This document shows positions 39,799 through 62,580 of a stretch of DNA of 64,000 nucleotides, one piece after another. Made by a program: the position numbers and the translations under genes. Each line of letters opens with the position of its first letter. Within the stretch, counting starts at the first letter, position 1. The notes under the pieces are model-generated. The model did no database searches. It had not been told where the DNA came from and saw only the letters and a list, made by a program, of their open reading frames with translations. The stretch is taken from assembly GCA_050084515.1 (NCBI GenBank), contig CM114271.1, forward strand, positions 21,700,001 to 21,764,000, read 5' to 3'. Origin of the DNA: Blasia pusilla (taxonomy: Eukaryota).

Positions 39799-40316
39799 GC
39801 AATATGTGCTCCGTCCTAGGAGACACCATCATGTCCTGAGCCAGGTAGTAGGAATCCAACACGTCTTAGAGAAGAGAGGAAGCCTAAGACTTGTTAGACG
39901 AAACTAGGGGAAGGTGCAAAAGTGAAGAAGCCTGCCAAAATGCCTGTAAAGTTGGACTAAGAAGGAAAGAGTCCGATCACTCACGCAGCCAACCTGTCGG
40001 AATTTGACAGGTTTCCTGGAAGTGGTTAAAAAGATGGAGTGGTCAAAAAATTAAAAGTTGCAACCCGTGGCAATTCGACGGGTTGCAATATGAAGTGTCA
40101 GAGTACATAGACGATCACAATCGACAAGACCAAAAAATATATTCAACAAACTTTTACAAAAGCCATCATCGTTTGAAAAAATCTTGTCCTTTATTACATC
40201 CAAAGGAATCTCGGAATTGTACATTTGATCTATTCTATGAATTCTTATGCCTCATCATCAAATAAATCCCTACTCCAAAATGTTGTAGTAAAGCTGGGTC
40301 CTTGAGTTCTTTGAAC

Positions 40317-43300
40317 TCACTTGTCATCGTCCGAGAGCTCCTCCAGAATTATTGTCGGCCTTGCCTTCCTGATTTTTGGAATGGTGGGAAGTGACGATGG
40401 TGTCACTACCAATGGTGGGTCTGGAACCGGAGCTGTTGGCTTCGGAGGAAAGTTGTACGCCCCAACTAGCCTGTCGTAATCTGCCTTTGTTTCTTTGCAA
40501 AGGTCAAACAGTTCCTGCCTTTCCTCAAGGCAGAGAATGTTCCTACCACTCTGCCAAGCGCCTCTGATACTCACCCCTGAAAGGGCCACTAAGTCAAACA
40601 CCAAGTCACCCAACCTTAAGCAGAGCTCGATGAGCGTTTGCATCAGCGCCGACGACTTTTCCCTTCCTCCAAGTAAGGGGGTACCATTTTCCATGTAAAT
40701 TCCCGGGGGGGATTTGTATAAACTATCTAAGTTGTACCCATAAGAGCATGGATCCACTGGATCGAGGATCTGAAACACTTGGAAGTTGTGCTCGGGCCTT
40801 ACAAAATAGTAGACAAAAGGAGTGGTCCATCTGTAAAGAAGCACGTTGGAAAAATGTCAGCAACAAGAAAGAGCTAATTTGAGTATGCAACAACAAGAAA
40901 GGTATACTATCAAAATGGTAACACAATGTGCAACTCGTCCCCAAAGAACTTCGCTTAACCCCAGAGAACTTAGTTATAGTCCTAACATTGGAGCAACTGT
41001 CGGAGTCCGACGGGTTGTTTTACAAGTGTTAGTGATTATTTTTGCCATGAGCAACCCGTTGGAAGGCGACAGGTTGATGGCTTAGAGCAACCCATGGTTG
41101 GCTAAGAGCAACCTAACGTCGGTTCAGACGGGTTGCATCATTCTAGAAACACAAGGAAAAGCATAAGCACTTGCAACCCGTCAGGTTCCAACGGGTTGCA
41201 TTCACCCAATGGAGACTTGCGGTAAATTTGCAACTCGTCGTTTTTATACGGATTGCACCACCGAAGTCTCCAACTCAGACAATCGGACGGGTTGCATACA
41301 GAGATGAAACCCGTCGGAGCAAGACAATTTGGATATGGATTTAGAGCCCTTACCCGGATTTGACTCGTCGCGGATCCGAGTGGGTACTTGTTCTTGATGA
41401 CACACGATTGCGTCGTCCTCCACTTCAGCGACCTCTTGACGCACTGCAGGTTGAAAAGCGTGTCCTCACTCCCTCCAGTCAAAACCAAGAAACAGCCCCT
41501 ATCACAAAGATAAGCGTCTGCAAAGGAAAACAGGAGCGCGATCTGGTCATAAGAAAGAGGGACATTCCAGTCTGGGACACCGTCGGACGGATTCTCGTCC
41601 CACAAGCGCAACCCGGAGGGCAAATCAACGACGAGGAGATCCACCGCCACCTCCTTGACCTCCTCATGGACCGTCGAGGGAGCATGCATGTTTTGTTGAA
41701 GCTTCCGTCCCAGCGTTGTTAATTTGTCAATGGCGGGTGTCGACGCTTGGGAACTCAAACTTTTCAGCTCATCCAGAAGATTCGTGCAGTGAATAATGAC
41801 GCTTGTCTTGGTCGTTGTTTCTCTATGTCTTCCCAAGGATGATGGAGTGTATTCCACATCTTGGTCTGCTCCTTGGGACAAACTTGGCACTTCTCGCTTC
41901 TGCTTCTCCCCAGTCTGCGGTCGGCTTGTTGGGGTCTCTATTACCTCAGACTCTGGTGGAGTTTTTTTGGCAGAGGACCTGGTCCGACCCTCTCTCCCCG
42001 CTCGCCCGGATGATTCCGCCTCTCGCCTTGAATTCTCAGCCTTTTTTTGGGAAGACTGGGCCTCGGAATTCTTCGATCCCCTCGCCTTGGCTTTGAGACC
42101 CGCTGTAGATTTATCCTTGGCGGTGACAACCTTGGACACCAACTCCACTGTCTCGATGGCTTGCTCCTCCGCATCTCCTTCGAAAAAGTCTTCAGGCTGC
42201 ACGAAATTGGGGATGTCGTCCCTACCTACGGCCACTGCATCATAGAGCAGGCGTAGATTTTTCTCGGTTATGTCCTCAGGGTCGTTGAAGTCCAGCCAGA
42301 TCAGGCAATTCTCCACCTCGTTGTCGGACATGCTTTGAGCCATCTCCATGTCGTACATGGAAAATGTCTCTCCATCAGGCGGAGAAGCCCACAATTTGCA
42401 GGCTGCCGGTATTTTTTGCCACGTACTTGAATTCTTACAATGGACGAGGTACCTGAACACCATGCGTTGGGCAGCTCTTAGTCAAGATGCATCGGCCGCC
42501 TGCTCTTGAAGATATCGCTTTTTCTTTGCGAAATCCCTTTTCTTCACCTCTATTTCTTCATCAAGGTCTGCTTGAGGGAGGATGTGATCCTTGAACATCG
42601 TCTTGAAGCGTGGATTTTTTATGGGCTTGTCCCGCATGTCATCAAGGCAAAGTTCGAAATCTTTAGCACTCTCCAGGTTTTCTTCCTCCGGAACTGGGTC
42701 TATTTTTTTCAGCTCCGCTTGGAGACCCACAAGCATGGAATCCCCGAGAAGCCGCAACACGTCCCAAAATGACCATTCACAGAGCCTGTGGGAGATCATT
42801 GGATCAGAGACACCCGGAGGATGGTGTGCCGCCCTCTTTTGGGCCTATGTGCCCTCAAGACTAATTTTCATCAGTTGGATTCTCCTAAATTCCGAAATTC
42901 CAGACAAGGCAAATCGTTGGACGCGGTCGAGAGACACTTTCTCCCCAATCTGACCCTACGGATCTTCATCCCTCTTGCGCTGGCGCTTGATTATCGCCTT
43001 TAGCTCCTTGTAGAAATCGGGGCCAAGTTTGGGGTTGTGAATGGTGATGTAGCGCTGCATCTTGCTTGCAGTGTACTTCGTAGCTGCAAATACTGTAGCT
43101 TGGATGAACTTAGCACGCTCAGACAAAGATACTTTCTCCCTCCACTCCAGCTCCAATGAAGCGCTCTTCTTGGCGGCCTGTATCTTCGACCAGCAAAGGA
43201 TTATCACGGCTGCATCTTGGGAAATAAATGTATTTGCCCATGTCTTTTTTTTTATTTGAGCCCCCTTTGCCAGCATCTCATTTACAAGGGCGTCGCCCAA

Positions 43301-45308
43301 GAACCCCTTGTACTGTGTCGGGTGCATCGTTAGCACTTTCTTCACCCGATCGCAATCCTGGATCCAATGGTGGGTGACATTCCCCTCGGATACAATCATG
43401 CACATCCAAACTCAATATAAGAAATTTTGCAAGCTACATGGGTTCCTGCAACCCGTCGGACTTCGACAGGTCGTCATACCTCATGGTCGGAATGGTAGCT
43501 ACGAGCTAAATTTTGCAACCCATCGGAGTCTGACGGATTGCATTCAGATTTGTGATTGTCTAGTTTCAACCCGTCGGACTCCGACGGGTTGTCAAATAAT
43601 TTGTATTCAGAGAGTGGTCTCCACGAGAAAAGTGAACATATCAACCCGTCGGAGTTCGACAGGTTGCGCAATTTCATGTAAAGTTGCAATGTGACGCCAA
43701 AAATCAAGGTCCCCTACTCTAATCATCTTCCTATGCCGGCGAATGCAACGCGTCGGAGTCCGACGAGTTGCTTTCGCCAAAAAATCCTAAAAAGCGACAG
43801 TCGAGCAACTCGTCGGACTCCGACGAGTTGCTTTCGGCCAAAAACATCCTAAAAATAGCGGCCCGTCAGCAACTCGTCGGACTCTGACGAGTTGCTTTCG
43901 GCCAAAAACATCCTAAAAACAACAACCTGTCAAGCAACTCGTCGGACCCTGACGAGTTGCTTTCGGCCAAAAACATCCAAAAAACAGCGGCCAATCAAGC
44001 AACTCGTCGGACTTCGACGAGTTTTGTTACCACTAGTTAAACAACTCGTCGGAGTCCGACGGTTTGCACCAATCAAAATAAAAGAAAGAGGAAACTTACG
44101 TGTTCATGGCATGCATGGCCATCTCCACCGTCGCCATGTGATGAGGGTATGGATGTAGCACGACTTCCTTCACGCAAAAATGCGCCTCCAATGAGTTTTG
44201 GCGCTCCTCTGCAAACTGGGTCCACGCCATAAACCTATGGTTTCCATCCTAGATGAAGAAATACAGGTTCCGCATCCTGCTGAATTTCGTCCCCTCAATC
44301 GCCCTTCTGAATTTGTGATCTCTCATCCTCCAGAATGTGTCGAGCGCCTCCAAGTCCTCCTCTGTCACCAGCGCTTGGGTTCCATGTTCATCATAAGGCT
44401 GAACATAGAACGGAGGGAAGTTGTCGACGTAGGATGTTGTCGCTGCTGATTGTTTCAGCTTCGCAATATCCTCGTCAGACTAAATTTCGCGGACTTACTC
44501 AATTGTCCGCAATTGGCAAAGTGGAATTCTCGGGGCGTTCTGGCCCTCCATCAATGCCATCTGCTTTACCACCTGTCACAATGGGGACAAGGTCAATAAA
44601 CTACACTGAATTGCCAATGAATTGCAACATGGGCCTTCACATAACTCAAAGAACAAAGATCATATATTACCCGCTCGAAGATTGGGTCGATGTCTTGGCC
44701 CGCCAACTGCTTTGGGACATCAGTTGGCAAGTCCACTGGAAACTCGTTGATCCGATAGAGGTCAATTTCTTCTGCCGGGCTAAGAGACGAGGAAGACCGC
44801 TCTCCTGCTTCTTCGGAGATGTCCACCATCTCCTGCTGGCGGTCCTCATGACCTCATTGTCCGTCACTTGAACTTTGCCCATTTCCTCAGCCGATTTTAT
44901 ATTGATTGTGTCTCCGGACTTCATCAGAGACATTTCGTGCATCTCAACACTTTCGGTTGGACGGGCCAAGCTTTCTTCAATGGCAATCGCTTTTTCCCTT
45001 CGAGCTTTTGCCAATTCTCCTCTCCTCACCGACGCGTCTAGACGCTTCTTTTCACGCTTCTCCTCGACGATCCTTTTCTTCAAGGCCTGCGACGCCTCAG
45101 CCTCTGCGTTCTATTTTTTTCAATCGCCTCCTTAACACGTTCTGCAAGAAGCTCTTGCCTGTGCATCTCCGCTTCCCTTTCGCGCTCCTCAATCTCTTCC
45201 TGCCTTATCTCATTGGCCGAACGAGGCCCTGGAGATGGTGACGCAAGAATCCTGGACTTGGGAGTAAAGCTCCCAGCCTTGCTTGCTTGAGTTTTTTTTC
45301 CTCGTCAT
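40317..45308 (-). pseudogene. ParB-like/N4C-N6A DNA methyltransferase-like fusion gene, copy A; exons ~45308-44100, ~43397-41354, 40830-40317
   Basis: Coiled-coil N-terminus; VREI*SDEDIAKLKQS...PPFYV and YFFI*DGNHRFMAW (DGNHR at 44248-44234); VDLLVVDLPSGL (DLPS 41626-41615); REKSSALMQTLIELCLRLGDLVFDLVALSGVSIRGAWQSGRNILCLE. GTAAG donors at 44099 and 41353; first acceptor mutated; several stops and frameshifts. Confidence 0.8.
43744..44066. repeat. Tandem ~60-bp units, each containing a palindrome (intron 1 of the ParB-MTase gene)
   Basis: Unit agcaactcgtcggactccgacgagttgctttcggccaaaaacatcctaaaaa...; a perfect 29-bp palindrome (1-nt centre) at 43804-43832. Confidence 0.9.
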
Positions 45309-45528
45309 TGTTCCCGAAAATGCCACCTCCTCGATAACGAAATTACTTTCTGTGCAGGATGAGTCGCGTTGATGAGTCGCTCCGATGAGTCGCCTCAATG
45401 AGTTGCCTCGATGAGTCGCTCGAATCGTCTCGCGATGAGTGGTCGTGTAAAGCGCCCCTTGGTATCTGGTCCGCTAAAGAGCAATCAAGATCCCGAAACA
45501 AAAAACCTGAAATGAGCGAACGCTAGCC

Positions 45529-45536
45529 TATTTATA
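45529..45536 (-). promoter_or_regulatory. Candidate TATA box of the ParB-MTase gene
   Basis: TATAAATA on the minus strand ~220 bp upstream of the ATG; conserved in copy C at 59188-59195. Confidence 0.45.
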
Positions 45537-46628
45537 CTTTTCGAGCCGTTGGGCTCACCGTTGGGTCGCATCGTCATTTCGACGGCGACGTGTCGGCCGT
45601 TATGGAGGTCTGGACGTGAAAACCACCAACCCAACGGTCTTCGACGGGTTGGAGGCATCCGTCCTAGCCGAGATATCCTAGAAACCCGTCGGAGTCCGAC
45701 AGGTTGCCTGCCTCCACCGTCTTAGGGGAAGAACGCGAGGTACCCGCGCGACCCGTTGATGACCAACGGGTTGCACCCTTCCCTCGTCTTGGGATAACAA
45801 GGCGGGATACCTGCGCAACTTGTCGAAGGCCAAAAGGTTGCACGATTCCTTCATGTGAGCGTTACAAGGCGAGGCACTTGCGCAACCCGTCGGAGGCCGA
45901 CGGGTTGCACGCTTCCCTCATCTTGGGGTAATAGGCGGGGTACCTGCGCAACTTGTCGGAGGCCGACGGGTTGCACGCTTCCTTCATGTAAGCGTAACAA
46001 GGCAAGGTACTTGCGCAACCCTTCGGAGGCCGGCGGGTTGCACGCTTCCCTCATCTTGGGGTAATAGGCGAGGTACTGGGCAACTCGTCGGTTACAGACA
46101 CGTTGCACTTTTTTCTATCCCTCGGGCAACAATGTGACAATAGATAGTTCTGAGGCAACCTCTTGCAATCCGACGGGTCACAAGGTCTACCCTGAGTTGG
46201 ACAATCCCGTAACAATCCCCAGCTATTAGTTACCTTAGCAAATGCAAGGGATGTCTCGTGTTTGATGCTAGCAAAATCGTCTCAAAAGACCATTAGTCGG
46301 CATGAAGGGTGTACCAACCCAACGGACTCCAACGGCTTCCAATTTGCATTGGGACACGGAAACAAAAAATGGAATTGGGTGCTTTGCAACCCACGTCTCT
46401 GATTCCCAAATTCTGCAACCCATCGGACTCCGACAGGTTGCAACAAAATTGAATCCATCATGTCAAAAAATCTCACCTACCAAAATTCATCTTGTCAGTC
46501 AAATTCTGTCAAGAGAATCAGAGTCCCTATTCACTTTAAATTGAACATTCTCATTCTTATTCTCATTCCCATACCCATTCTTATCCTCATTCTTATTCTC
46601 TATCTCCTCCCGGTGGAATCTTCTCGGA

Positions 46629-49600
46629 ATGGATAATTATGTGAAGCTCACTTGTGGCAGTCATCTAGCGGCCCTTCCTCAATCAAAAATCGTTCGACCG
46701 CAAGCTCGTGAGTCTTTCATACCAATGGATGAAAATTTTCTCTCAGTTCGATTTCTTCTCCAAATTGGAACCATCTTTATATCCAAGGATGTTAGGATGG
46801 ACGGTATGGAGGACATAATAGGTGAGACAATCCAGCGAATGATTGCAGACCGTAAAGTATGGAATCTCCTACCTCTAGCAAATGATCAATACAGAGTTTA
46901 CGGCTTGCCTCTGAATTCCTCTGTTTCCCAAGTAGATGGTCGAGAATTTCCTAGTTCACCGAGCTCTACTTTGGCAACTCCTAGCTCAGTAGATCCGGCA
47001 TCGGCTCCAACTTCACACGTTCGTTACAATGGTGTACTTCCTGAAGAAATTCCCGATGTTGTCAACCTCAGTGGATCGGTCAGACACCAACCGGGCCCTC
47101 TGTCTGCCTACTCGTTCCTCTTGCGGATATCAGGCAATAGTTTGCTATCGCCTCTGGCCTTGAAAATGTTCAAGCACATTCTTGTCAATGAGCTGCGGCC
47201 CACGTACGATGGTAATTATATTTTTGGGTTGCCTCCACTTGCTGCTCCTGCTCAAAAGAAAGATGGAGGACGCTTGAAGGGTATGGACAGAAAGTCTGAT
47301 TGTCATCGATGGTGCAGGCTTCAACGGACTAGTGCTTCAATTTCAGATGGTCCTTGGATTTTCTCCCACCGCCAATTCGTTGGAGCCTTGGAGTGTAGAA
47401 GTCCAACATGCCCGTATCTAGAGCACAACGGACAAGTCAATACATTGCAATTCCCCCCCAAGAATGCAGAAACTCCATATGAGGTCGGTGCCACCATACC
47501 GCCGGGAGGTCATCGATGTCCTCATTGTCAAGCATCCCCTTTTTGCGAACTTTTTATGGTATTACTACTTGACACGAGAGATAACCAACGAGTAATTGGA
47601 GATGAACAGGATAGCCTGGATGTTCAAGTCGGGTTGGAGCGTGTCCTCCATACATATTCTTCATTATCCATGACTTGGGCTCCACGTCAAAGTACACAAG
47701 GCTGGCAATTCATGTTGGCTCCCACACTCATCCTGTGACCGATGCAATTCAGAGACACATCAAGGAGGATGTGGCAAAGAAAGTGGCCGAGATCTTGAGA
47801 AACTCTCCGGGTTCAAAGCCCGGAGTGATCAAGCTAACAACAGCATCACAAATTTGCAAACAATTGCTTGGAATCCTTGGATAGGGCGAGATCACGGCTG
47901 CTGAGGAGAAACAACCTTGGGAAAATCTCGCATTTCTCGCTGATCGTGAATGCTTCCGAATTTTTGCGTCAAATACGGGTACTCGATGGAAAGACGGCCA
48001 AAATGGATTTCATTGCCAGAATCAAGGCCAACTCCATATTTCCATTCATTTAGAGATGGCAATTCATGGGCTAGGGAGGCAAAGGATCCAGGGTCGATGT
48101 CTTCAAAATGTCAACGACAGGTCCGTCGAGTGGCCTCGATCTTATAGATCGAATGAGGGAAGGGGAAGATCTTTACGGTAGTTGGGTAAGCTTTGATATT
48201 TGCTACAGAGTGCTGAACGGATGGTTGAAAATGGGTGCTCATGTTTATGACCATGTGGAGAAGGGACTCAAAACTATATTTGTCTGTGAAGTAAAAGCAA
48301 AAGACATTGGCAGTTTGAAGATCTGTTGGTTACTCTTATTAGAGGTGGTGAAGGAAAACAAAAGGCCACCTCCGGAAATTTATGGGTTCATGGCGGACAA
48401 TGCACAACCTGGGTGGATTGCTATCAGGGAAGTGTTTTGGGGTGGGGAGGTTCAACCGGAGAGAGAAAGGTCGGATGCTTTCCATTGGCAACAATCTGTG
48501 ACCCGCTACACCAAATCTTGCATCAAGGAGAATAAGAGGAGGGAGCATGTCACTCTACTCCAACGCTGCAAGGACAACAAAACCTTGAAACAGGCCATGG
48601 AATGCCAAGAAGAAATTCATGGGTGGTGGAGGAAACATGCGATTGAGGGGAAGTACAAAGAGTTATGCTCTTGGTTGAGTTAGTGGACTGTACAAATGAG
48701 ACAATGGGGAAACTTCATGCGGGAGGTGAGTTCACTAATTTGTCTCGCTGAAAATTGTTTGAAGAGTTGCAGCTAAAGGTGAGAAGCGTGGGCACTATAG
48801 GGATTTCAAACCAAAGAAACCAAGCAATTTGTCGGATGCGACATGTTGCCTCCCTGAGTGTTCAACCCATCGCTTATCGACGTGTTTCCTGAGTGTGCAA
48901 AGAGTCGAAACCTGACGGGTTGCAAGTCGCACAGCCAAATTTACTTGCAACCCATCCGAATCATACGGGTTGACGGGTTGCCTGAGAGTGCAACTAGTCA
49001 GAAAAGGACAGGTTGCAAGTGGCATGGCCAAATTTACTTGCAACCCGTCAAAATTCGACGGGTTGCACTAGGTGGTTCATGGGTGTTGCAACACGTCGGA
49101 ACCAATAGGTTATAGAGTCATTCATGGGATACCTCCAACTTGCAACCCGTCACGTTTCGACATGTAGCTTTTTTTTTTGCTCATAGAGCTATTTTGGTTC
49201 CCTTATCACAGTGTCGTTGTTGCAGGGATTGAACATTTATGAAAATGCCTTCTGCCCCAACACAAGTGGAGCATAAAGTGTTCATTCCTCGTGGAGGTCA
49301 TCACAAGCATGCCAAAGAATTTCACTTGTGGAGTGTCACGACCCTCATAACCAAACAACACCAAATAGGCGCCAAGCGAAACATCAGAACTCAAGTGAAC
49401 TCACGCTGCGAGGTTTGCGCTTTGGAGAGGCGTTTGGAAAAGTCTCTTGGAAAAGTTTAAGAGACAAAACGTAGAACAGATCTAGAGTTGTGTGTTTCAT
49501 GCGTTAGTGGTCACAACCAGAAACCTAGACCAAACGCGAGCCAAGACTTGAGATGAGTTGAGTCTTGGGAGGTTGGTTGCCAAAGAGGTGAGAACCAGTT

Positions 49601-50957
49601 TGGAACACGACTAGCGTTTGGGAGAGTCTGACTGTGTTTAGGACCATAACTTTAAGCTTTGAGATGCATTCGGGACAAGTAAGAGCGCGTTGGAGAGATG
49701 ATCTTAAGACGCTTCCAACGCACTAAAGATCTCAGAAAATGCATAAGTATAGGCTCAGATATTGGCCGAAAACAATTGAGAGAGCAATCGGGTTGAGGGC
49801 CAATTGGAGAGGCCCAGATATTTTTCCCTAAATGTAGGAGGCCCTCATAGATCCCCAGAAGTACTAGTAAGGGAGTTCTCTCAGAGATGTCTCGGAACAC
49901 GAATCCCCACTTTGGGCGCCAAACGGCGTTTCAGAGACGGGATGGAACGGGAGTTTGGCGTTGGAACTCGAAACCCAAACCTGATCCAAGGGAGTGGACT
50001 TTGTACGCCACACTTGGATTCCAACCCGAGATTCACTTCGTGCGAGTCTTGGTGAGGAACTCATTGGATGTCCATCAGACAATTGGAACCGCTAGGCGCG
50101 AAACAGCGTTTCAAGTTCCTGAACCGACCAGAAAGTCTGTCCCAAGTCTTTCAAGATTTGTCCGTGTTGTAAACCGCGAAACTAGGAAGGTTGAGCTTGA
50201 TGAGAGTCAGAGACAAGAACTCAGAAAGTAATCCCGCTGATTGATCCAAGACCCGACTAACCAAAGTGTGTGTTTGGATGCAGATCACCGTTGAGAGCAT
50301 GACCTACTGAACGCACGCTTCCGCAACCAACAAGATTAACGTTCAAGGAGAGTAGGCGCACGACATGGAGGCATGCCAACAAGACCAGGCAAGAGCAATG
50401 CTACAGTCTGCAGCATCCCATATCTTCCTCACAAAAGGCATAACAAAAGGAAGGGGGCCTTTGATCTACGAGCTCTATGTCAGGGCGGCTGTGAGATCGG
50501 GTGATGAGAAACTCTATGTGGAAGCCTTCAATCGGTGCGTAGCAGGAACTCCCCTCGAGCAAGACGTACACATTGGTGGGGATATTTGTGGGCGCATTTC
50601 AAGACGTCACATACAGATGGTGGTAGAGCAGTCCGAGCGAGACTCGTGGAGACTATATAAGTATCTTGACTTCAGGCAGGTGAAGAGGCAACATCGAGGA
50701 ACGAATCCGATGATTGATTTGGATGAGGAAATTATGCCGCCTAGGTATTCGGGGACCCCGGATTGCTCCCAAATCCATAATGGAGTAACTTCTCCAAAAT
50801 CAGTGAATGTTTTATTTCAAAAGCCCTTGGTTGCTGGAAGTTCGCAACATCCGGTCGCTGGGGTGGTTCAACAATATGGGATTCCGGTCATGGAGGTGGA
50901 TTACAACCTGAAACGGTGGCATATATCTCGGAGCAACCCTGGACGTGGACCCACTTG
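46629..50957 (+). pseudogene. MULE-type DDE transposase, copy A (intron 48726-49225; solo LTR inserted; C-terminus truncated)
   Basis: Cys/His N-terminal domain (GALECRSPTCPY, CPHC, RLAIHVGSHTHPV); D1 in WVSFD; D2 in GFMADNA; DAFHW (the C/DxxH motif); WLS*W...QWG; after in-frame splicing PNTSGA*SVHSSW, with the expected catalytic E replaced by TAA at 49274-49276. Confidence 0.85.
49334..50365. repeat. Solo LTR, family C, inserted in the transposase exon
   Basis: TGTCACG...CGACA termini; perfect 5-bp TSD TGGAG (49329-49333 and 50366-50370); removing it restores RISLVEACQQDQAR. Confidence 0.93.
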
Positions 50958-52487: not shown

Positions 52488-53612
52488 GGGGGCTGGTATT
52501 CTAGCAAGAGAGAGTAAGAGAGGAGAGGAAGAGAGGAAGAGAGGAGAGTCTCTCTTAAAAAAAAGGGCCAAATCCGCCTCCTCTCTTCAAAACTTTTTGA
52601 CATATTTGAAATTTTTGTTTGCTTTCAAATTCATGAAATCTTTAGAAGAGAGTAGGTAGTGGTCCACATTCGGGCCTAAAGAAACCTCCTTTTTCCAGGG
52701 GGCGAAAAAAAAGTAGACATCATAAGACCACTACAAACATTTTTCCATCACTCTCCATGTGAGCCTAAGTTTCTTAACATTGCCTGTCTCGGTCTACAAT
52801 AAGCAGTGCCCATGGGTATTTTTGTTGCGGGACCACTCGGATGCGCATCGGTACGATGCCAACCTCTCTTTTTGCAGGGATTGTTGCCTGCATCATGGCC
52901 TCCCTTGAATTGCCTCATAACCCACTTTCTGTTGGTTATGAATTGTGTCTGCTCAAGACCAACTTTGTGAAATGTGAACACATGATACGATAATTGAACC
53001 AAAAGATTGTTAGCTGTCTAGAGTAAAGAGGAACTGATGTGCCTTCATTCAGATCCTAAATCTGAGAAACCGAGAAGCTGCACCCCTCCCAACCCGTCGA
53101 AATTTTATAGGTTGCAACTCTTGCAACCCGTCGGAATCAGATGGCTTGCACCCCTTGCAAGCAAGTTCACCATAACAAAGGAAAGATTTTGAGAAGTGAT
53201 TCCCTTCCACCCTGCACCCATGAAAATCCAACAGGTTGGGAATCCGAAATGGTAATCCGCAGGTAGTAGAAATCCTGCACATCTTAGACAAGAAAAGAAG
53301 CCTACAACTGGTTTGACGAATCTAGGGGAACGAGCCAAAAGTGAAGAAGCCGGCCACAATGCGTCAGAAGTTGGTCTCAGAGGGAAAGAGTCCGATCACT
53401 CAAGCAGCCAACCTGTCGGAATCCGACAACTTGCCTGGAAATGGTTAAAAAGTTGCAATGGTCAAAAAGTGAAAAGTTGCAACCCGTCGGAATCATACGG
53501 GTTGCAAAATTGTCATTCTGAGTAGCTAGAAGAACGCAATCCACAAGTCCAAAAAAAATATTCAGCAAACTTTTCCAAACACCATTATCGGTTGAAAAAA
53601 TCTCGTCCTTTA

Positions 53613-53945
53613 TTACATCCGAAGGAATCTCGGAAATTTATATTTGACGTAGTCTATGATTTCTTCAGCCTCGTCATCTACAAATCTACTCCTAATTCTC
53701 CAAGGTTCCTGTACAAAAGGAATGTCCTGGGATACAAATGGCTCCTCTAGCCGATTGTAGACTGGGATCGAAAATGTTGGCAAATTTGAGAGCCTTGGTC
53801 CCTCCCCCCCCTCCTCTAGGTACACCATAACGGTCCCATGTAACCTGATTTGAGTCCCACCGCCTTCCTCGGCAGTATATCTTGTACGCTTTGCAATGAG
53901 ACACCCATCCAGTATCAATATGTGCTCCGTCATTGGAAATACCAT
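53613..53945 (-). CDS. Small ORF (110 aa) of unknown function inside the transposon
   Basis: ATG-initiated open frame with protein-like composition; its 3' part is duplicated in degenerate form at ~54310-54400 and ~40190-40290. Confidence 0.3.
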   Translation of the reverse strand: MVFPMTEHILILDGCLIAKRTRYTAEEGGGTQIRLHGTVMVYLEEGGEGPRLSNLPTFSIPVYNRLEEPFVSQDIPFVQEPWRIRSRFVDDEAEEIIDYVKYKFPRFLRM

Positions 53946-54434
53946 GATGGCAATCCAAGAGGTAGTAGGAATCCAACACGTCTGAGAGAAGAGAAGAAGC
54001 CTACGCCTTGTTTGACGATACTAGGGGAAGGTGCCAAAGTGAAGAAGCCCGCCAAATTGCCTCTTAAGTTGGACCAATAGGGAAAGAGTCCGATCACTCA
54101 CGCAGCCAACTTGTCGGAATCCGACAGATTGCTTGGAAATGGTTAAAAAGATGCAGTGGTCAAAAAGTGAAAAGTTGCAAACCGTGGAAATCCGACGGGT
54201 TGCAAAATAGAAGTCCTCGGAGTACATAGACGATCACATTTGAAAAGACATAAAAGATATTCAGCAAACTTTTAGAAACACCACCATCGTTCAAAAAAAT
54301 CTTGTCCTTTATTACATCCGAAAGAAGCTCGGAACTGTACATTTCATCTATTCTATGAAATCTTTTGCCCTCGTCATCAAATAAATCCCTACTCCAAACG
54401 CTGCAGTCAAGCTGGGTCCTTGAGTTCTTTGAAC

Positions 54435-57400
54435 TCACTCGTCATCGTCCGAGAGCTCTTGCAAAATTATTGTCGGCCTTGCCCTCCCGATTTTCGGAAT
54501 CGTGGGAAGTGACGATGGTGTCACTACCAATGGTAGGTCTGGAACCGGAGCTCTCGGCTTCAGAGGAGAGTTATACGCCCCAACTAGCCTGTCGTAATCT
54601 GCCTTTGCCTCCTTGCAAAGGTCAAATAGTTCCTGCCTTCCCTCGAGGCAGAGAATGTTCCTGCCACTCTGCCAAACGCCTTTGATACTCGCCCCTGAAA
54701 GGCCCACTAAGTCGAACACCAAGTCACCCGGCCTTGAGCAGAGCTCGATGAGCGTTTGCATTAGGGTTGGCGATGTTTCCCTTCGTCCAAGTAGTGGGGT
54801 ACCGTCTTGCATGAAAATTTCCGGGGGGGAATTGTATAAACTATCTAAGTTGTACCCATCAGAGCATGGATCCACGGGATCCTGGATCTTAAACACCTGG
54901 AAGTTGTGCTCGGGCTGAACGAAGCAGTAATCATAGGAGTGGTCCATCTGTAAAGAAGCACGTTGGAAACAATGTCAGCAACTTGGCCACTGGTCTACTC
55001 TCAATATGGTGACATAATGTGCAACACGTCACCAAAGAACTTTGCTTAAGCCCAGAGAACTTCTTTATAATACTAACATTGGAGCAACCTGTCGGAGTCC
55101 GACCGGTTGTTTTTGTCCATGACCAAACCGTCGGAAGGCGACGGGTTTCTGTCTTAGAGTGGAGAAGAGGGAAAACGCATTACCACCGGAAGCACAGGGA
55201 AAAAGCATAAGCACCTGCAGGTGCTTATGCTTTTTCCCTGTGCTTCCGGAAAGGTGCAACCCGTCTGAAAGCGACGGGTTGCTCTCAGCCAAGCATGGGC
55301 TGCTCTAAGCCAGCAACCTATCGCCTTCCGACGGGTTGCTCACGGACAAAAACAACACGTCGGAGAAATACAATCTGGAGACAGGAATAGAGCCTTACCC
55401 GAATTTGACTCGTCACGGATCCGAGTGGGTACTCATTCTTGATGATCCACGATTGCGCCGTCCTCCACTTCAGTGACCTCTTGACGCACTCGAGGTTGAA
55501 AAGCTCGTCCTCGCTCCCTCCAATCAAAACTAAGAAGCAGCCCCTGTCACTCAGATAAGCGTCTGCAAAGGAAAACAGGAGCGCGATCTGGTCATAAGAA
55601 AGGGGAACATTCCAGTCTGGGACCCTGTCGGACGGATTCTTGTCCCATAATCGCAACCCCGAGGGCAAATCAGCGATCAAGAGATCCACCGCTACCTCTT
55701 CGACCACCCCATGGACTGTCCAGGGAGCATGCCCATTTCGTTGAAGCTTCCGTCCCAACGTTGTCAATTTGTCGATGGCGGGTGTCGACGATTGAGAACT
55801 GAAACTTTTCAGCTCATCCAGTAGATTCGTGAACTGAAGGATGACGCTTGTCCGGGTCGTTTTTTCTCTATGTCTTCCCAAGGATGATGGACTATATTCT
55901 CCTTGGGACAACCCTGGCGCCTCTCGCTTCCGCTTCTCCCGAGTCTGTGGTTGGCTTGTTGGAGTCTCTATAACCTCAGACTGTGGTGGGGTTTTTTTCG
56001 CAGAGGACCTCGTCCGACCCTCTCTCCCCGCTCGCCCGGACGATTCAGGCTCTGGCCTTGAATCTTCAGCCTCTCTTTGGGAAGACTCGGCCTCAGAATT
56101 CTTCCATCCCCTTGCCTTGCCTTTGAGACCCGCTGTAGATTTGTCTTTGGCTATGTGGACCTTGGAAGCCAACTTCGCTGTCTCGAGGGCTTGCTCTTCC
56201 GCATCTCCTCCGAAAAAATCTTCAGGCTGCACAAAATTGGGGATGTCGTCCCGTCCTGCGGCCACTGCATCATAAAGCACGCGTAGATCTTTCTCGGTAA
56301 TGTCCTCAAGGTCGTTGAAGTCTAGCCAAATCGGGCAATTCTCCACCTCCCAATCGGACATGCGCTCAGCCATCTCCGTGTCGTACATGGAGAATGTCTC
56401 TCCATCAGGCGGAGAAGCCCACAATTTGTAGGCTGCCAGTATTTTTCCCCGGGTACCTGCATTCTTACAAGGGACGAGGTACCTGAACACCATACGTTGG
56501 GCAGATCTTACTCGAACTGCATCGGCCGCCTGCTCCTGAAGATCTCGCTTCTTCTTTGCGAAATCCCTTTTTTTTCCCTCAATTTCTTCGTCAAGGTCTG
56601 CCTGAGGGAGGATGCAATCCTTCAACATCGTCTTGAAACCTGGGTTTTTGATGGGCTTGTCCCGGATGTTATCAAGCCAAAGTTCAAAATCTACAACACT
56701 CTCCAAGTTTGCTTCCTCCGGAAGTGGCCCTATTCTTTTCAGCTCCGCTTGGAGACCGTCGAGCATGGACTTCCCGATAAGCCGCAACGCGTCCCAGAAC
56801 AACCATTCGCGGAGCCAGTGGGAGATCACTGGATCAGAGACACCCGGAGGATGGTGTGCCGCCCTCTTTTGGGCCTCTGTGCCCTCGAGACTGATTTTCA
56901 TCAGTCGTATTCTCCTAAATTTTCTTATTCCAAACAAGGCAAATCGATGCACGCGATCGAGAGACACTTTCTCCCCAATCCGACCTTGCGGATCTTCATC
57001 CCTTTTCCGCTTGCGCTTGATTATCGCCTTTAGCACCTTGTAGAAATCCGAACCAAGTTCGGGGTTGAGAATGGCGATATAGCACTGCATCTTGCTTGCC
57101 GTGTACTTCGTAGCTGCAGATACTGCAGCTTGGATGAATTTTGCATGCTCAGACAGAGATACTTTCTCCCTCTGCTCCAGCTCCAATGCAGCGCTCTTCT
57201 TGGCGGCCTGTATCTTCGACCAGCAAAGGATTGTGACGGCTGCATCTTGGGAGATAAATTTATTTGCCAAAGTCTTCTTTTTGATTTGTGCACCCTTTTC
57301 CAGCATCTCATTTACAAGGGCGTCGCCCAAGAACCCCTTGTACTCTGCCGGGTGCGTCGTTAGCACTTTCTTTCCCCGATCGCAATTCTGGATCCAGTGG

Positions 57401-58932
57401 TGGGTGACATTCCCCTCCGATACAATCCTGCACATCCAAACTCAATATAAGAAAATTTGTAAGTTACATGGGTTCTGCAACCCGTCGGACTCTGATAGGT
57501 CGTCACAGCTCAAGGTTGGATTGTAGCAACGAGCTAAATTATGCAACCCATCGGAGTCCGACGGATTGCATTCAGATTTGTGATTGCCTGGTTTCAACCC
57601 GTCGGACTCCGACGGGTTGTTAGATAGTCCGTATCAAAAGTGAACATATCAACCCGTCAGAGTCCGACAGGTTGCGCAATTTCAATGAAAGTTGCAATTT
57701 GACGCCAAAAATGTAGCTCCCAACTTCCGAATACAATGTGTCGGACTCCGACGAGTTGCTTTCGGCCAAAGACATCAAAAAACCTCCAAAAATAGCTTCG
57801 AGTCAAGCAACCCGTCGGACTCCGATGAGTTGCTTTCTTCAAAAAACATCCAAAAAATGGGGCGAGTCGAGCAACTCGTCGGACTTCGACGAGTTGCTTT
57901 GGGCCAAAAACATCCTAAACCTGTGGTGAGTCGAACAACTCCTCGGACTCCGACGAGTTGCTTTCAGCCAAAAACATCCTAAACCATTGATCAATCGAGC
58001 AACTCGTCGGAGTTCGACGAGTTGCTTTGGGCCAAAAACATCCCAAAAATAGTGGCGACTCAAACAACTTGTCGGAGTCCGACGGTTTGCAGCAAGAAGA
58101 AACTTACGTGTTCATGGCATGCATGGCCATCTCCACCGTTGCAATCGGCAGAGTGGAATTCTCGGGGCGTTGTGGCCCTCCATCAGTGCCATCTGCTTTA
58201 CCACCTATCACAACGGGGACAAGATCAATAAGCTACAGTGAATTGCCAATGAATTGCAACATGGGCCTTCACATAATTCAAAAAACACATATCCTCTCTT
58301 ACCCGCTCGAAGATTGGGTCGGTGTCTTGGCCATCCAACTGCTCTGAGACAGCAGCTGGCAAGTCCACTGGAAACTCGTCGATGCGATAGAGGTCGATTT
58401 CTTCCGCCGGGCTTAGAGACGAGGATGACCGCTCTCCTGCTTCTTCAGCGATGTCCACCATCTCCACGCTGGCGGTCCTCATGACCTCATCGTCCGTGAT
58501 CTGAACTTTGGCCGTTTCCGCTATATTGATTGTGTCCCGGGACTTCATCGGGGACATTTCCCGCATCTCAACACTTTTGGTTGGACGGGCAGGGCTTTCT
58601 TCAATGGCTATTGCTTTTTCCCTCCGAGCTTTAGCCAATTCTGCTCTCCTCACCGACGCGTCCAAACGCTTCTTTTCTCGCTTTTCGTCGGCGACCCTTT
58701 TCTTCAAGGCCTGCGACGCCTCTGCCTCTACGTTCTATTTATCGAGCGCCTCCTGTACACGTTTTGCAAGAAGCTTCTCCTTGTGCATCTCCGCTTCCCT
58801 TTCTCGCTCCTCGATTTCTTGCTGCCTTATCTCATTGGCCGAACGAGGCCCTGGAGATGGTGACGCAGGAGTCCTCATGGACTTGGGAGTGAAGCTCCCA
58901 GACTTGTTTGCTTGAGATTTTTTCCTCGTCAT
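54435..58932 (-). pseudogene. ParB-like/N4C-N6A methyltransferase-like fusion gene, copy C; exons 58932-58108, 57427-55399, 54947-54435
   Basis: Canonical GT-AG junctions give MHAMNT|IVSEGNVTHHW and SQIR|MDHSY in frame; exons 2 and 3 are open (705-aa and 170-aa ORFs). VDLLIADLPSGL (DLPS 55671-55660); RETSPTLMQTLIELCSRPGDLVFDLVGLSGASIKGVWQSGRNILCLE. Exon 1 has stops and lacks the DGNHR segment (deletion at ~58140). Confidence 0.82.
57470..58092. repeat. Palindrome array in intron 1, copy C
   Basis: About ten copies of caac(c/t)cgtcgga-n-tccgacg(g/a)gttg at roughly 60-bp spacing. Confidence 0.9.
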
Positions 58933-60465
58933 TTTTCCCAGAAATGCCTCCACCCATGTGCACGATGAATCGCTTGATGAGTCGCCTTGCTGATGTCGAG
59001 ATGAGTCACCTTGATGGGTAGCTCGAATCGTCTCGCGATCGTTCGCTCGAACCATCTTGCGATCGTTCGCTCGTATCGTCTCGCGATGAGTCGCCGTGTA
59101 AAGCGCCCCTTGGTATCTGGTCAACAGCTGCGCGGGAGAGCAATGGAGATCGCGAAATGAAAAACCGGAAATGAGCGATTTCTCCCCTATTTATACTTTT
59201 CGAGCCGTTGGGCTGACCGTTGGGTCGCATCGTCCTTCCGACAGCGACGTGCCGGCCGTTACGGAAGTCTGGACGTGAAAAACAGCAACCCGACAGCTTC
59301 GACGGGTTGTGCGCTTCCCTAGGGTTCAAGGCATCCGTCCTCGTGGCAACCCGTCGGAGTCCAACAGGTTGCGCGCGTCCGCCGTCCTAGGACGAGAACG
59401 CAAGGTGCGCAAGCAACCCGTCGGAGACCGACAGGTTGAGCGCCTCCGCTGTCTTCAGACAAGAATGCGAGGTACACGCGCAACTCGTCAGAGACTGACA
59501 GGTTGCGCGCCTCCGCCGTCTTCGGACAAGAACAGGAGGTACGCGCGCAACCCGTCGGAGATCGTTGGGTTGCACGCTTTGGAGACCGTTGGGTTGCAAC
59601 GCGGGCTTCCGTGCAACTCCTCGGAGGCCGACAAGTTGCACGCTTCCTTCATGTAAGCGAAACAAGGCAAGGCCCTTGCGCAACCCATCTGAGGGCGACG
59701 GGTTGCACGCCTCGCCGTCTTTGGGCAAGAAGGTGCGGCACCTGCGGAACTCGTCGGAAACAGACGGTTTGCACGCTTCCTTCATGTAAGTGTTACACCA
59801 TGAGATAATTGGGCAACCCCTCTGATGCCGACTGGTTGCGCGCCTCCGCGTCTTTGGGCAAGAAGGCGCGGTACCCGCGCAACTCGTCGGAGAGCGACGG
59901 GTTGCCAGCTTTGTTCATGTTTGCGTTACAAGGTAAGGCAGAAGCATGCAACCTGTCCAAAGCCAACAGGTTGCAGGATTCACTTAGCTTGGGTTAATAG
60001 TTGAGTTACCAGGGCAACCCGTCGGTTATCGACAGGTTGCACGCTTTTCTATCCCTCGGGAAACAATGCGACAACGTATTGTTCCAAGGAAACCCATTGC
60101 AATCCGATGGGTTACAAGATGTACCATGAGTTGGACAATCCCGCAAAACCAAGCGATATCTTGTGTTTGATGCTAGCAAAATCGCCTCAAAAGATCTTCG
60201 GTCGGCAAGAAGGGGATACCAACCCAACGGACTCCGACGGGTTCCAACAAAATGAAGTGTGTTTCGCAACGCACGTCTCTACTTCCCAAATCCTGTAACC
60301 CACCTGACTCGAGAGGTTGTAACAGAATTGAATCCATTGTATCAGACAATTTCACCTACCAAACTTCACCTTGTCAATCAAATTCTGTCAGGAGAATCTG
60401 AGTTCCTATTCACTATAAATTAAACATTCTCATTCTCAGTCTCCTCTTGTTGGAATCTTCTGGGA

Positions 60466-62158
60466 ATGGATACTTATGTGAAGCTCACTTATGGCAGTCA
60501 TCTAGCGGCCCTTCCTCAATCAAAAATCGTTCGACCGCAAGCTCTAGAGTCTTTCATAGCAGTGGATGAAAATTTTCTCTCTCTTCGATTTCTTCTCTAA
60601 ATTGGAACCATCTTTGTATCCAAGGATGTTAGGGTGGACGGTACGGAGGACATAATAGGTGAGACAATCCAGCCAGTGATTGCAGACCGTAAAGTATGGA
60701 ATCTCCTACCTCTAGCAAATGGTCAATACAGAGTTTACGGCTTGCCCCTGAATTCGTCTGTTTCCCAAGTAGACGATCGAGAATTTCCTAGTGCACCGAG
60801 CTCTACGTTTGCAACTCCTAGCTCAGTAGATCCGGCTTCGACTCCAACTTCACACACTCGTAACAATGTTGTTCTTCCTGAAGAGATTCCGGATGTTATC
60901 AACCTCAGTGGATCTGTCGGACACCAACCGGGCCCTCTATCCGCCTCCTCGTTCCTCTTTCGAATATCAGGCAATAGTTTGCTTTTGTCTCTGGCCTTGA
61001 AAATGTTCAAGCACATTCTTGTCGACGAGGTGCCGCCCACGTACGATGGTATTTGCATTTTTGAGTTGCCTCCACTTGTTGCTCTTGCTCAAAAGAAAGA
61101 TAGAGGATGCTTGAAGGGTATGGACAGAAAGTCTGATTGTATTTGGGGACCCCGGACCGCTCCCAAATCCGTGATGGAGACCCTTCTCCAAAATCAGTGA
61201 ATGTCTTATTTCAAAAGCCCTCCGTTGCTGGAAGTTTGCAACATCATGTCACTAGAGTGGTTCAACAATATGGGATTCCGGTAATGGAGGTGGATTGCAA
61301 CCTAAAACGGTGGCATATATCTCGGAGTAACCCAGGACATGGACCCACCTGAAGGGCAAGATCTGATGGCATTAGGAGAGCATGCGGCACTTTCCTAAAT
61401 AAGAACTGTACAAGGATTGGACGACCACTGCCTGGGTTTTGGGGATTCAAAACCTTTGATCGTTTCACGAGGACCGGGGATCAATTGAAGTACTTCTTCT
61501 GTCCAAATGAATCTTGCGCTTTCTGGAAGTCTTATCCGGATGCCATTGGAGCTCCGGGGAATACCCCCACGATTTGGCCCATCGTTACAGGTAAAAATTG
61601 CACTCAAGACGAAGTGGACAATCTTACAAGTGTCGGTTTCAGACTTGTAGACGGGGGAAGTTCGGAGCATGTTTGCATTATAGAGACCTTCGCATTTCGT
61701 ATTCAACCCAAGATTGATGTCAAGATGTACCGGAGAAGGTGGATGATCTCAATCCACTATTTCTGTTTGAGTCTAGAAATGGGGTGAAGAGAAACAGAAT
61801 GTGTAGGCCAATGGTGGAGAGAGCAAAGCGAATTGCATCAGCTTGAGAGGCAAAAATGGAGATCATCGCCACAAAAGATGTCAACAGTGGCAATGGAATA
61901 GGAAGGATGTATTGGATCAAGAAAAAAATTGTAAATTCAAGTGTCACAGGGGTGTATGTGGTGCACATCTGTTGCTTTCCCACATGTTCATGTGATGACT
62001 TTGTCCAAAGAGAGACAAGTGGCAAAAGGTTTTTTCCCTTGTAAGCACATGTACTATGTATTGCTGGCAGTTTTAAGAGAGTCGGAGGTAGGAGTAGGAA
62101 TCCACCAACCAATTTTGTCCCTCAAAGAAGTGCGAAGTATTTTAAACAAACCACTTTG
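60466..62158 (+). pseudogene. MULE-type transposase, copy C: DDE core deleted, C-terminal SWIM zinc finger retained
   Basis: 60466-61140 matches 46629-47303, then joins directly to the equivalent of ~50746. The C-terminus reads VYVVHICCFPTCSCDDF...FFPCKHMYYVLL (CxCxnCxH, with a 1-nt frameshift). Confidence 0.85.
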
Positions 62159-62580
62159 AGGATGCAAAATGAGGTTTTAGACTGTACTTTCATTTTTCCA
62201 TAACCTTCACTTTGAGCTTGAACTTCATTCAGCCTAGGGCAAATGATAGATTTTTTCCAGACCTTGGATGGAAAAAGTGATTGGTTCCACACTTATGATT
62301 CCACTGATTTTTCAGTTTTCTAAATTTTGTGCAATTTGCAACTCGTCGGACTCAGAGGGGTTGCCAAAATGTGGAAGAGGAAAAAAAACTGTGGGAGTGC
62401 TTAAGAACTAAGCAGAAAAGTGCAAAAAAAATCACACAGAAAGTTTCCTCTCTTCAACCCAACGGAAACTCTCTTCAAATCACAGGAAACTCTCTTCAAA
62501 TCACAGGAAACTCTCTTTTGGTTGAAGGTAGTTTCCTCTCTCCTCTCTCCTCTCTTCCTCTCTTCCTCTCCTCTTACCCC

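Follow-up and report, generated by a model that had tools for sequence, protein, structure and literature searches.

A bryophyte transposon family with a ParB-like/methylase-like fusion gene and arrays of one long palindrome: a candidate self-recognition system

Introduction

To our knowledge, self-recognition and escape from silencing by transposons are known in detail for very few systems, with VANDAL/VANC as the usual example. Closest to the locus described here are red-algal Plavaka (EnSpm/CACTA), Mutator and Zisupton elements of 17-19 kb, which carry the accessory genes PAG2 (PF01555 with SET) and PAG3 (a ParB-like domain with a 2OG oxygenase) (bioRxiv 10.1101/2025.02.11.637652). As far as the accessible text of that preprint goes, tandem inverted-repeat arrays adjoin PAG3, the ParB call comes with an HHpred E of 0.29, and the proposal made there is of a protein that binds to, and modifies, the element encoding it (bioRxiv 10.1101/2025.02.11.637652). 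Here we analyse a window of 64,000 nucleotides from Blasia pusilla (contig CM114271.1, positions 21,700,001 to 21,764,000; all coordinates below count from the first letter of the window), in which positions 39799-62580 are occupied by a transposon family with a plus-strand transposase gene, a minus-strand accessory gene and dozens of copies of one palindrome. We suggest that the accessory protein may recognise these palindromes and act on the DNA of its own element.

Related components have been described in other settings. In the accessible parts of the respective sources, the MpDN4MT1a/b proteins of Marchantia are prokaryote-type beta-class N4-cytosine methylases, encoded by host genes, sperm-expressed and active (bioRxiv 10.1101/2021.02.12.428880), and VirB of Shigella, a protein with the ParB fold, offsets H-NS silencing from palindromic sites (PMC10653881).

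Results

Three related copies reconstruct one transposon

The block at 39799-62580 consists of two long copies (A and C) and one fragment (B) of a single element, 80-90% alike in self-BLASTN, which also gave the identities in this paragraph. Copy A (39800-44137 and 44509-47303) aligns with copy C (53916-58145 and 58141-61140) at 79-83% identity, and fragment B (51075-52488) is 90% identical to A 41390-42807 and 88% identical to C. Homology starts at 39799, and a TC-rich ...CCCC end finishes at 62580, in line with the limits assigned in the initial annotation. Copy A has the accessory gene (-), an intergenic array and, of the copies, the fullest transposase (+); copy C extends upstream of 53916 to a GA-rich, G-tailed end at 52488. 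An end of the same type lies at 50957, the inverted counterpart lies at 62580, and both genes are situated between 52488 and 62580. Joining the best-preserved parts (52488-53915, 39799-50956 and 61358-62580) gives a unit of ~13.8 kb, in agreement with the single unit of ~13-14 kb that the initial annotation, a reading of the letters of this stretch, had assembled from the three copies; the 'small ORFs' (open reading frames) that it also placed in the unit had no family match.

39799-50956: copy A; left terminal ~1.4 kb absent, right side cut at 50956 by a GA-rich end
50957-51076, plus strand: GA-rich, G-tailed left-type end with two GA blocks, joined to fragment B
51075-52487, minus strand: fragment B, an internal 1.4 kb of the accessory gene, with 'VDLLVADLPSG'
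52488-52562, plus strand: copy C, terminal inverted repeat on the left, GGGGGCTGGTATTCT... followed by GA-rich DNA
62530-62580, minus strand: right terminal inverted repeat, TC-rich, ending ...CCCC, an inverted match to the left end

The 26-mer AGAGGAGAGGAAGAGAGGAAGAGAGG (at most 3 mismatches) marks these termini. It occurs only at 50989, 51038/51046 and 52519 on the plus strand and at 62549-62574 on the minus strand, that is, five matches in the window against 0 expected from 100 shuffles, and the inverted orientation bears out the inverted GA-rich ends claimed previously. A G run precedes each plus-strand copy of the 26-mer, and the three ends align as imperfect inverted repeats: between 52488-52562 and 62530-62580, ~70 columns align with one 13-bp indel, and 52519-52548 is 100% identical over 30 bp to the reverse complement of 62545-62574. 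We conclude that three dead, nested copies of a single bryophyte family of cut-and-paste DNA transposons make up the block.

Some further features of the block were noted. The two left-type GA-rich ends stand in direct orientation (50957-52562) and enclose just 1.4 kb of accessory gene, as might result if gap repair had aborted or the template had been switched in the course of transposition. The 8-bp ACCTCGCA, found at both 39793-39800 and 62581-62588, resembles a target-site duplication flanking the whole 22.8-kb block; position 39799, in the left ACCTCGCA, which falls within a retrotransposon gag ORF, is the truncated left edge of copy A and not a GA-rich terminal repeat. A reading of ACCTCGCA as a proven 8-bp duplication, by way of a gag ORF (39029-39799) continuing past 62580, was unsupported; the in-frame continuation right of 62580 ends after 43 codons and matches nothing in the window. 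The CpG observed/expected ratio is 0.82-0.85 in the element versus 0.67 to its left, values that are uninformative on methylation.

A spliced accessory gene with the signature of purifying selection

In copy C, a 707-amino-acid (aa) ORF at 55318-57441 (-) is joined by a GT..AG intron to an exon at 54435-54947 (-), which recovers the spliced minus-strand gene proposed in the initial annotation. Splicing was assigned here from GT..AG sites and homology.

54435-54947, minus strand: copy C last exon, methylase motif I region, acceptor AG, stop codon at 54435
54948-55398, minus strand: copy C intron, GT at 55398 and AG at 54948, 451 nt, with 4 palindromes
55399-57441, minus strand: copy C large open exon in the 707-aa ORF (P0001), with helical middle domain, linker and 'VDLLIADLPSG'
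58240-58932, minus strand: copy C first exon, K/E-rich N-terminus, ATG at ~58932 or 59055, in-frame stop at 58735
40317-40829, minus strand: copy A last exon, motif I region 'GDLVFDLVALSGVS', stop codon; Pfam N6_N4_Mtase E 1.3e-3
41350-43390, minus strand: copy A large exon, broken into 3 ORFs, located by tblastn of Riccia relatives
44063-44566, minus strand: copy A ParB/Srx-like exon, with 'PRIPLCQL' and 'DGNHRFMAW', 4 in-frame stops

The large exon of copy A encodes a helical middle domain, a low-complexity linker and a methylase-like N-terminal half with 'VDLLVVDLPSG'. The ParB-like exon is gone from copy C, in which A 44137-44509 has no counterpart.

The ratio of non-synonymous to synonymous substitution rates (dN/dS) between C and A was 0.34 over 678 codons; C versus B gave 0.33, as did the last exon. 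Among the control frames, four of five gave dN/dS of 0.84-1.14, and the antisense frame sharing third positions gave 0.48. Because dN/dS is 0.34 in frame, A, B and C are not neutral products of local duplication of one dead insertion. A local segmental duplication only had been named as the outcome that would undo the initial annotation; the copies instead diverged under purifying selection. We conclude from these codon comparisons that the minus-strand gene is genuine, and that purifying selection kept it functional in the lineages leading to these copies.

A HMMER scan of 1.84 billion representative proteins returned 31 relatives at E ≤ 1e-3. Thirty were looked up: 22 are hypothetical proteins of Riccia sorocarpa, one is from R. 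fluitans and seven are unnamed assembly proteins, Riccia being a liverwort genus. The relatives lie on at least 8 different scaffolds, as a mobile family would predict, and the Riccia copies keep the same architecture at ~25-33% identity to the window. One relative of 1207 aa (P0037) has the whole architecture: its low-complexity N-terminus is followed by the domain that contains 'IPLCRL ... KFSTWDGNHRLITW', then by a helical domain and, after a charged linker, by a methylase-like domain in which 'LDLPTG' comes first and 'GDIVIDFAGGWGAT' last. We conclude that the accessory protein is built of four parts, namely a low-complexity N-terminus, a ParB/Srx-like domain, a helical and probably helix-turn-helix (HTH)-bearing domain, and a beta-class N6/N4-methylase-like domain. 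Searched as a whole, the 707-aa ORF had no match in Pfam or in a word-indexed protein search, and its best phmmer hit in the PDB (legumain, E 0.33) is not meaningful. The helical middle domain gave no clear fold match, the CENP-B HTH (Z 5.2) being one of many ties.

Signs of a linkage of the two genes come from outside the window. In R. sorocarpa, residues 27-204 of R1sor_026403 (P0031) match the transposase N-terminus (46725-47336, E 2.7e-17) and residues 195-340 match the middle domain of the accessory protein, and its neighbour R1sor_026404 (P0023) carries the methylase-like part. These adjacent gene models lend indirect support to a transposase-accessory linkage elsewhere. On the co-occurrence asked about in the initial annotation, R. 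sorocarpa thus offers gene models, neighbouring or fused, that combine a piece resembling the transposase with the accessory gene.

One palindrome is confined to the non-coding DNA of the block

The 29-bp palindrome TGCAACCCGTCGGANTCCGACGGGTTGCA, of the form (T)GCAACCCGTCGGA-N-TCCGACGGGTTGC(A), has 67 sites in the window at ≤8/28 mismatches, all between 39988 and 62337, versus 0 in each of 5 Markov simulations of the window. None lies outside the block and none inside the definable exons, which upholds the claim of dozens of copies of one palindrome in non-coding DNA. Complementarity of the arms averages 10.2/14 pairs, and the sites include tandem arrays with a period of 64-67 bp. Copies A and C share the placement of their palindromes, which fall into the left subterminal DNA downstream of the accessory gene, the last intron of that gene, the intron after the ParB-like exon (a 64-65-bp tandem array) and the divergent intergenic region of 1.3-1.5 kb (a 67-bp tandem array). 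Copy A has further sites in its transposase intron, and copy C a single further one in its right subterminal DNA.

43447-44068: copy A intron, 10 palindromes, 65-bp tandem array at 43745-44023
45625-46442: copy A, between the divergent genes, 11 palindromes with a tandem array of 67-bp period
48896-49169: copy A, 5 palindromes inside the transposase intron (48684-50355)
53088-53506: copy C left subterminal region, 4 palindromes
57476-58091: copy C intron, 10 palindromes, 64-bp tandem array
59345-60246: copy C, between the divergent genes, 13 palindromes with a tandem array of 67/133-bp period
62337-62365: single palindrome, right subterminal region

A 450-bp segment is duplicated in copy C (53249-53695 and 53947-54398), and the right subterminal region contains repeats of 21 bp (62448-62517).

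Motif and fold comparisons point to a possible ParB/Srx-like domain

A Gly-x-x-Arg type motif (DGxHR / GERRxRA) marks the ParB/Srx superfamily. Copy A has DGNHR at 44248, as do most of the Riccia relatives that cover the region, with DGNHQ and DGNQQ in two; A 44063-44566 matches residues 153-313 of P0005 in tblastn at E 5e-18. When structure chains were re-aligned to the AlphaFold model of P0009, the best three of 314 belonged to the ParB family, namely Noc 7ol9_B (Z 6.5, 192 aligned), ParB-CDP 6sdk_A (Z 6.3, 180/199 residues, root-mean-square deviation 5.5, chain residues 20-218) and Noc 7nfu_A (Z 6.2), the next chain having Z 4.7; all VIA Z values, here and below, are under 8, a level given by the tool as common for unrelated models, and in this respect they count among the objections taken up in the Discussion. 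An independent, wide search by fold ranked KorB, a ParB DNA-binding domain, Spo0J and PadC within the top 50 of 48,161 chains (Z 4.2-5.3), with KorB of plasmid RK2 as the best ParB-family match (Z 5.3, 179 residues aligned). The Foldseek matches of the P0009 model all had E>0.1, with Noc, ParB and sulfiredoxins turning up repeatedly among them. Because of these fold matches and the DGNHR motif, we consider it somewhat probable that the N-terminal domain is ParB/Srx-like, and we regard this assignment as the weakest link of the analysis.

The last exon resembles beta-class amino-methylases

The Pfam family N6_N4_Mtase matched two window exons and four relatives at profile positions 165-220 (E 9.4e-6 to 4.9e-3). 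The window exons in question are the last exons of copy A (19.1 bits) and copy C (E 4.9e-3, 17.3 bits). With P0037 as the tblastn query against phage genomes, 15/15 weak matches fell on the same motif I stretch, and 13/15 lie in genes annotated as DNA methyltransferase or methylase. Aligned by hhalign with three phage enzymes, P0038 gave a probability of 95% and E 3.5e-8 over 54 columns, and another hhalign run to the phage enzymes gave 92% and E 5e-7. Motif IV precedes motif I (alignment A5), the motif I region being at the C-terminus. RsrI methylase was the best PDB match of the copy C last exon (phmmer), at an E of 0.24 that is not meaningful, and Atlas features pointed to MT-A70 methylases at 0.80, which serves as a lead only. 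A family profile of the methylase part found nothing among PDB sequences at E ≤ 10, and the N-terminal half of the domain was aligned to known methylases by no method used. At the level of sequence, the evidence supports a beta-class N6/N4-methylase-like C-terminal half of the accessory protein.

The transposase is tentatively read as Mutator-like

46629-48683, plus strand: copy A transposase, N-terminal Cys/His-rich region and DDE-like core, by homology to P0044
50356-50956, plus strand: copy A next transposase exon, candidate catalytic E in 'LYVEAFN', after a 1.67-kb intron
60466-62160, plus strand: copy C transposase, C-terminal part kept; internal deletion (A 47304-50744 missing), junction at ~61140
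61985-62048, plus strand: SWIM-like CxC...CxH (TGT TCA TGT ... TGT AAG CAC), 46 nt between, read by eye

The DDE-like core of copy A contains 'WVSFDI', 'GFMADNA' and 'SDAFHW', with the frame broken from ~47560 to 48075; residues 156-689 of P0044 match 47100-48755 at E 2e-83. Transposase homologues with 45-52% identity are present in other assemblies. A metagenome scan with the transposase alignment yielded one 2-kb degenerate contig, L001, which has neither accessory gene nor palindromes; its downstream exon is homologous to the exon at 50356-50956 (BLASTP, 41% identity over 56 aa, E 5e-11). Read by eye, the motifs D / D..D(2)H / EAxN are collinear, and the SWIM-like CxCx15CxH motif, split by a 1-nt frameshift, is present if the frameshift is read through. 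A D(2)H motif is common to several transposase superfamilies. The order of the motifs and the SWIM-like finger agree with what is described for Mutator-like elements, and our best guess from sequence is a DDE-type transposase of the Mutator-like superfamily. Terminal inverted repeats, often long, are described as a Mutator superfamily feature in the accessible text of a published account (PMC6446971). Other traits of the superfamily are target-site duplications of 8-11 bp and a C-terminal SWIM zinc finger (CxCxnCxH). An assignment to KDZ/Plavaka was judged less likely and dropped, there being no Pfam match and the termini starting with G runs. Of the DDE+SWIM Mutator-like transposase of the initial annotation, the inverted ends are borne out, the collinear motifs are read by eye and the SWIM-like motif depends on reading through the frameshift; Pfam gave no match.

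Divergence between A and C differs along the element. The transposase N-terminus (46588-47303 vs 60425-61140) is 92% identical, with dS 0.11 and dN/dS 0.66, versus 88% identity and dS 0.27 in the accessory gene (41340-43420 vs 55399-57441). The closer transposase N-terminus hints at recombination between element lineages.

Surroundings of the block

Besides the block, the window contains decayed retrotransposon pieces and a short-chain dehydrogenase gene. Two 86%-identical Ty3/gypsy-type pieces lie at 38001-39799 and 9468-10853 (Retrotrans_gag E 1.7e-9), and the gag copy at 39029-39799 breaks off where the transposon block begins. A 0.85-kb repeat, probably another small mobile element and otherwise unconnected with the transposon, occurs in the transposase intron of copy A (49519-50365) and, 71% identical and 32 kb upstream, at 17399-18244. 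The open exon at 23474-24184 (+; adh_short E 5e-32) is probably a host short-chain dehydrogenase gene among repeats.

Discussion

A candidate reader of its own palindromes

We give about even odds (roughly 0.5) to an accessory protein that recognises the palindromes, acts on the DNA of the element encoding it and keeps the gene pair expressed. This reading starts from what is observed, namely the anatomy of the element, selection on the accessory gene and liverwort relatives in many copies. A long, two-fold symmetric site fits a dimeric HTH reader, as does the location of sites within the introns of the accessory gene itself and in the promoter region that both genes share, and the red-algal parallel favours the same candidate. 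The protein would bind as a dimer, through its ParB-like and helical parts, to the 13-bp half-sites of the 29-bp palindrome, whose arrays occupy the shared promoter, two accessory-gene introns, the transposase intron and subterminal DNA. Binding would concentrate the methylase-like domain on the element's own DNA, and the gene pair would stay expressed. This could be achieved by a non-canonical modification or, given DLPSG, by S-adenosylmethionine-dependent or purely structural occupancy, which would resemble the action of ParB-family regulators from palindromic sites. The outcome might be anti-silencing, autoregulation or marking. The fuller proposition, that in liverwort-type transposons a phage/plasmid-style ParB-HTH module fused to a catalytically remodelled methylase module reads its own palindromes in promoter, introns and ends and shields the element from host silencing, is tentative, and we hold it to be possible but doubtful.

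A number of results weigh against this reading, in addition to the modest Z values given above. For the N-terminal domain, Pfam ParBc was found in none of the 59 window ORFs (E ≤ 1), in none of the 31 relatives and in 0/16 relatives at E ≤ 10, and a family profile of the ParB/middle part found nothing among PDB sequences at E ≤ 10. Confidence in the models is modest: mean pLDDT (predicted local distance difference test) is 60.6 for P0009, ranging from <50 to ~88 within the domain, and 66.8 for the second model, P0013. Foldseek found nothing at E ≤ 0.001 for either, and no ParB-family chain was in the top 50 for the P0013 model, which does not include the first half of the domain. For the transposase, Pfam gave nothing for the window ORFs (E ≤ 1) or for homologues P0040-P0045 (E ≤ 0.1 to 10), Pfam SWIM matched neither window ORFs nor homologues, the family profile had no relative among PDB sequences, and the DDE and SWIM motifs rest on reading by eye. 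No copy is intact: in A the ParB exon contains 4 stops and the frame is interrupted, C is left with neither the ParB exon nor the DDE core, and B is a fragment. No target-site duplication pairs either left end (50957 or 52488) with the right end at 62580, and the palindromes and termini are known from a 64-kb window of one genome.

The methylase-like domain bears on the same question. Its Pfam matches cover just the last quarter of the N6_N4_Mtase profile and do not reach the gathering score of 26.7 bits, the best being 26.2 (P0035). Motif IV reads DLPSG in copies A, B and C, not (D/N/S)PP(Y/F/W), and D[LMI]Px[GH] in 9/10 covering relatives, with HLPSG in the tenth; the variants among relatives are DLPTG, DMPSG, DMPIG, DIPTG, DLPTH, DLPKG and HLPSG. 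Because motif IV has no Pro-Pro-aromatic triad in three copies and ten relatives, ordinary N6-adenine or N4-cytosine methylation by the accessory protein is doubtful. The active site appears remodelled and possibly inactive, conserved rather than decayed. In the three phage adenine-methylase genes nearest to the family (Lrm1, Javan91 and SMO_1P), motif IV is D-I-P-Y-N and not DPPY (alignment A7); a subgroup of this kind may be the source of the D-[ILM]-P seen in the transposons. Of the domain identities put forward in the initial annotation, the methyltransferase therefore stands for the C-terminal half (hhalign E 3.5e-8), and falls short in motif IV and the Pfam score. ParB is suggested by the DGNHR motif and by the ParB-family chains that top one fold search (Z 6.2-6.5), without a profile match. 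Profile searches overall returned a weak N6_N4_Mtase match, and no ParBc, MULE or SWIM match in Pfam.

The palindromes might instead be transposase-binding or structural sites, or hairpin-prone minisatellites, with the accessory protein acting elsewhere, on chromatin or RNA. Some of them do lie in both subterminal regions (53088-53506 and 62337), the transposase has a putative DNA-binding Cys/His-rich region of its own at the N-terminus, and the arrays are ordinary 64-67-bp tandem repeats. However, at least 44/67 sites are internal, in introns and the intergenic promoter region and not at the ends, the GA-rich termini themselves hold no palindrome, and a long two-fold symmetric site suits a dimeric HTH protein more than terminal-repeat recognition. 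As far as the accessible red-algal text goes, the precedent also pairs such arrays with a ParB-like gene. We consider this explanation unlikely. Quite unlikely, in our estimate, is a protein that binds the same palindromes as a KorB-style autoregulator or copy-number repressor and holds transcription down. KorB was the best ParB-family match in the wide fold search (Z 5.3), and the largest array sits between the two divergent start codons; the fold evidence for such a repressor is equally weak, though, and it would leave the conserved methylase-like domain and the intron and far arrays unexplained.

Improbable, finally, is a role for the accessory gene as mere cargo in the style of Pack-MULEs, acquired from the host or horizontally, beside palindromes that are unrelated satellites. 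Gene capture is frequent in Mutator-like elements, according to the accessible parts of two accounts (PMC6446971, PMC6431247). Against cargo, the gene is whole and not a fragment, it was under purifying selection between element lineages (dN/dS 0.34), and the same architecture recurs in many dispersed Riccia copies, with a transposase-like piece again adjoining.

If the fuller proposition is correct, then with the split red-algal version taken into account, a ParB-like reader, a DNA-modification-type domain and a site array would together be a recurrent self-recognition device of eukaryotic transposons. The family offers a compact, testable bryophyte case, with a selected protein that combines a candidate reader with a methylase-like domain, one long defined palindrome in dozens of copies per element, and many relatives in Riccia, a genus near laboratory liverwort models. 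The family-wide loss of Pro-Pro-aromatic would mean either a pseudo-methylase kept as a binding or regulatory module, or non-canonical chemistry. Red-algal ParB-like and methylase accessory genes would now extend to land plants, in fused form.

Comparison with known systems

In common with VANDAL/VANC, a Mutator-type element here encodes an accessory protein and holds many copies of a short motif in its own non-coding DNA. VANC, however, is neither ParB-like nor methylase-like, and VANDAL motifs are short, not long palindromes. With the ParB-methyltransferase fusions of phages and plasmids it has in common the order of a ParB-like domain followed by a methylase, and with phage beta-class methylases the motif I half (hhalign E 3.5e-8) and D-[ILM]-P. 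It differs from them in a motif IV without the aromatic residue of the phage enzymes, in an insert of ~600 helical and low-complexity residues between the domains, and in being a eukaryotic transposon gene with introns; the three phage enzymes themselves (Lrm1, Javan91 and SMO_1P) have no ParB domain. KorB (RK2) and VirB, as far as their accessible descriptions go, are similarly ParB-fold transcription regulators acting from palindromic sites, but they are bacterial and without a methylase domain, and the resemblance here consists of weak fold matches.

Fungal Kyakuja-Dileera-Zisupton/Plavaka elements with a TET/JBP dioxygenase are likewise transposons carrying a DNA-modification-type gene; theirs is another enzyme class, and the accessible text reports no ParB-like domain or palindrome array (PMC12730594). 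MpDN4MT1a/b, in what is accessible of their description, provide a parallel as prokaryote-type beta-class amino-methylase genes in a liverwort (bioRxiv 10.1101/2021.02.12.428880); no Marchantia protein was among the 30 relatives looked up.

The likeness to the red-algal PAG cassette, compared by architecture and within the accessible text, is that of a ParB-like domain, a PF01555-like domain and repeat arrays in a large transposon. The red-algal domains are in separate proteins, whereas here the ParB-like and methylase-like domains are fused, and Pfam found no SET or 2OG domain in the window ORFs or the 31 relatives. The host is a bryophyte, the transposase is not detectably EnSpm/KDZ, and motif IV is DLPSG. 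We found no bryophyte case of this combination in the literature, the supplements of the Bostrychia preprint, which possibly list more hosts, excepted. The combination as such, put forward initially as one not known to be characterised, is preceded by the red-algal Plavaka, Mutator and Zisupton elements, on the accessible text of their description (bioRxiv 10.1101/2025.02.11.637652). The general idea is thus known. New in this case are the fusion of the two domains, a host among the land plants, the remodelling of motif IV and the great regularity of the palindrome.

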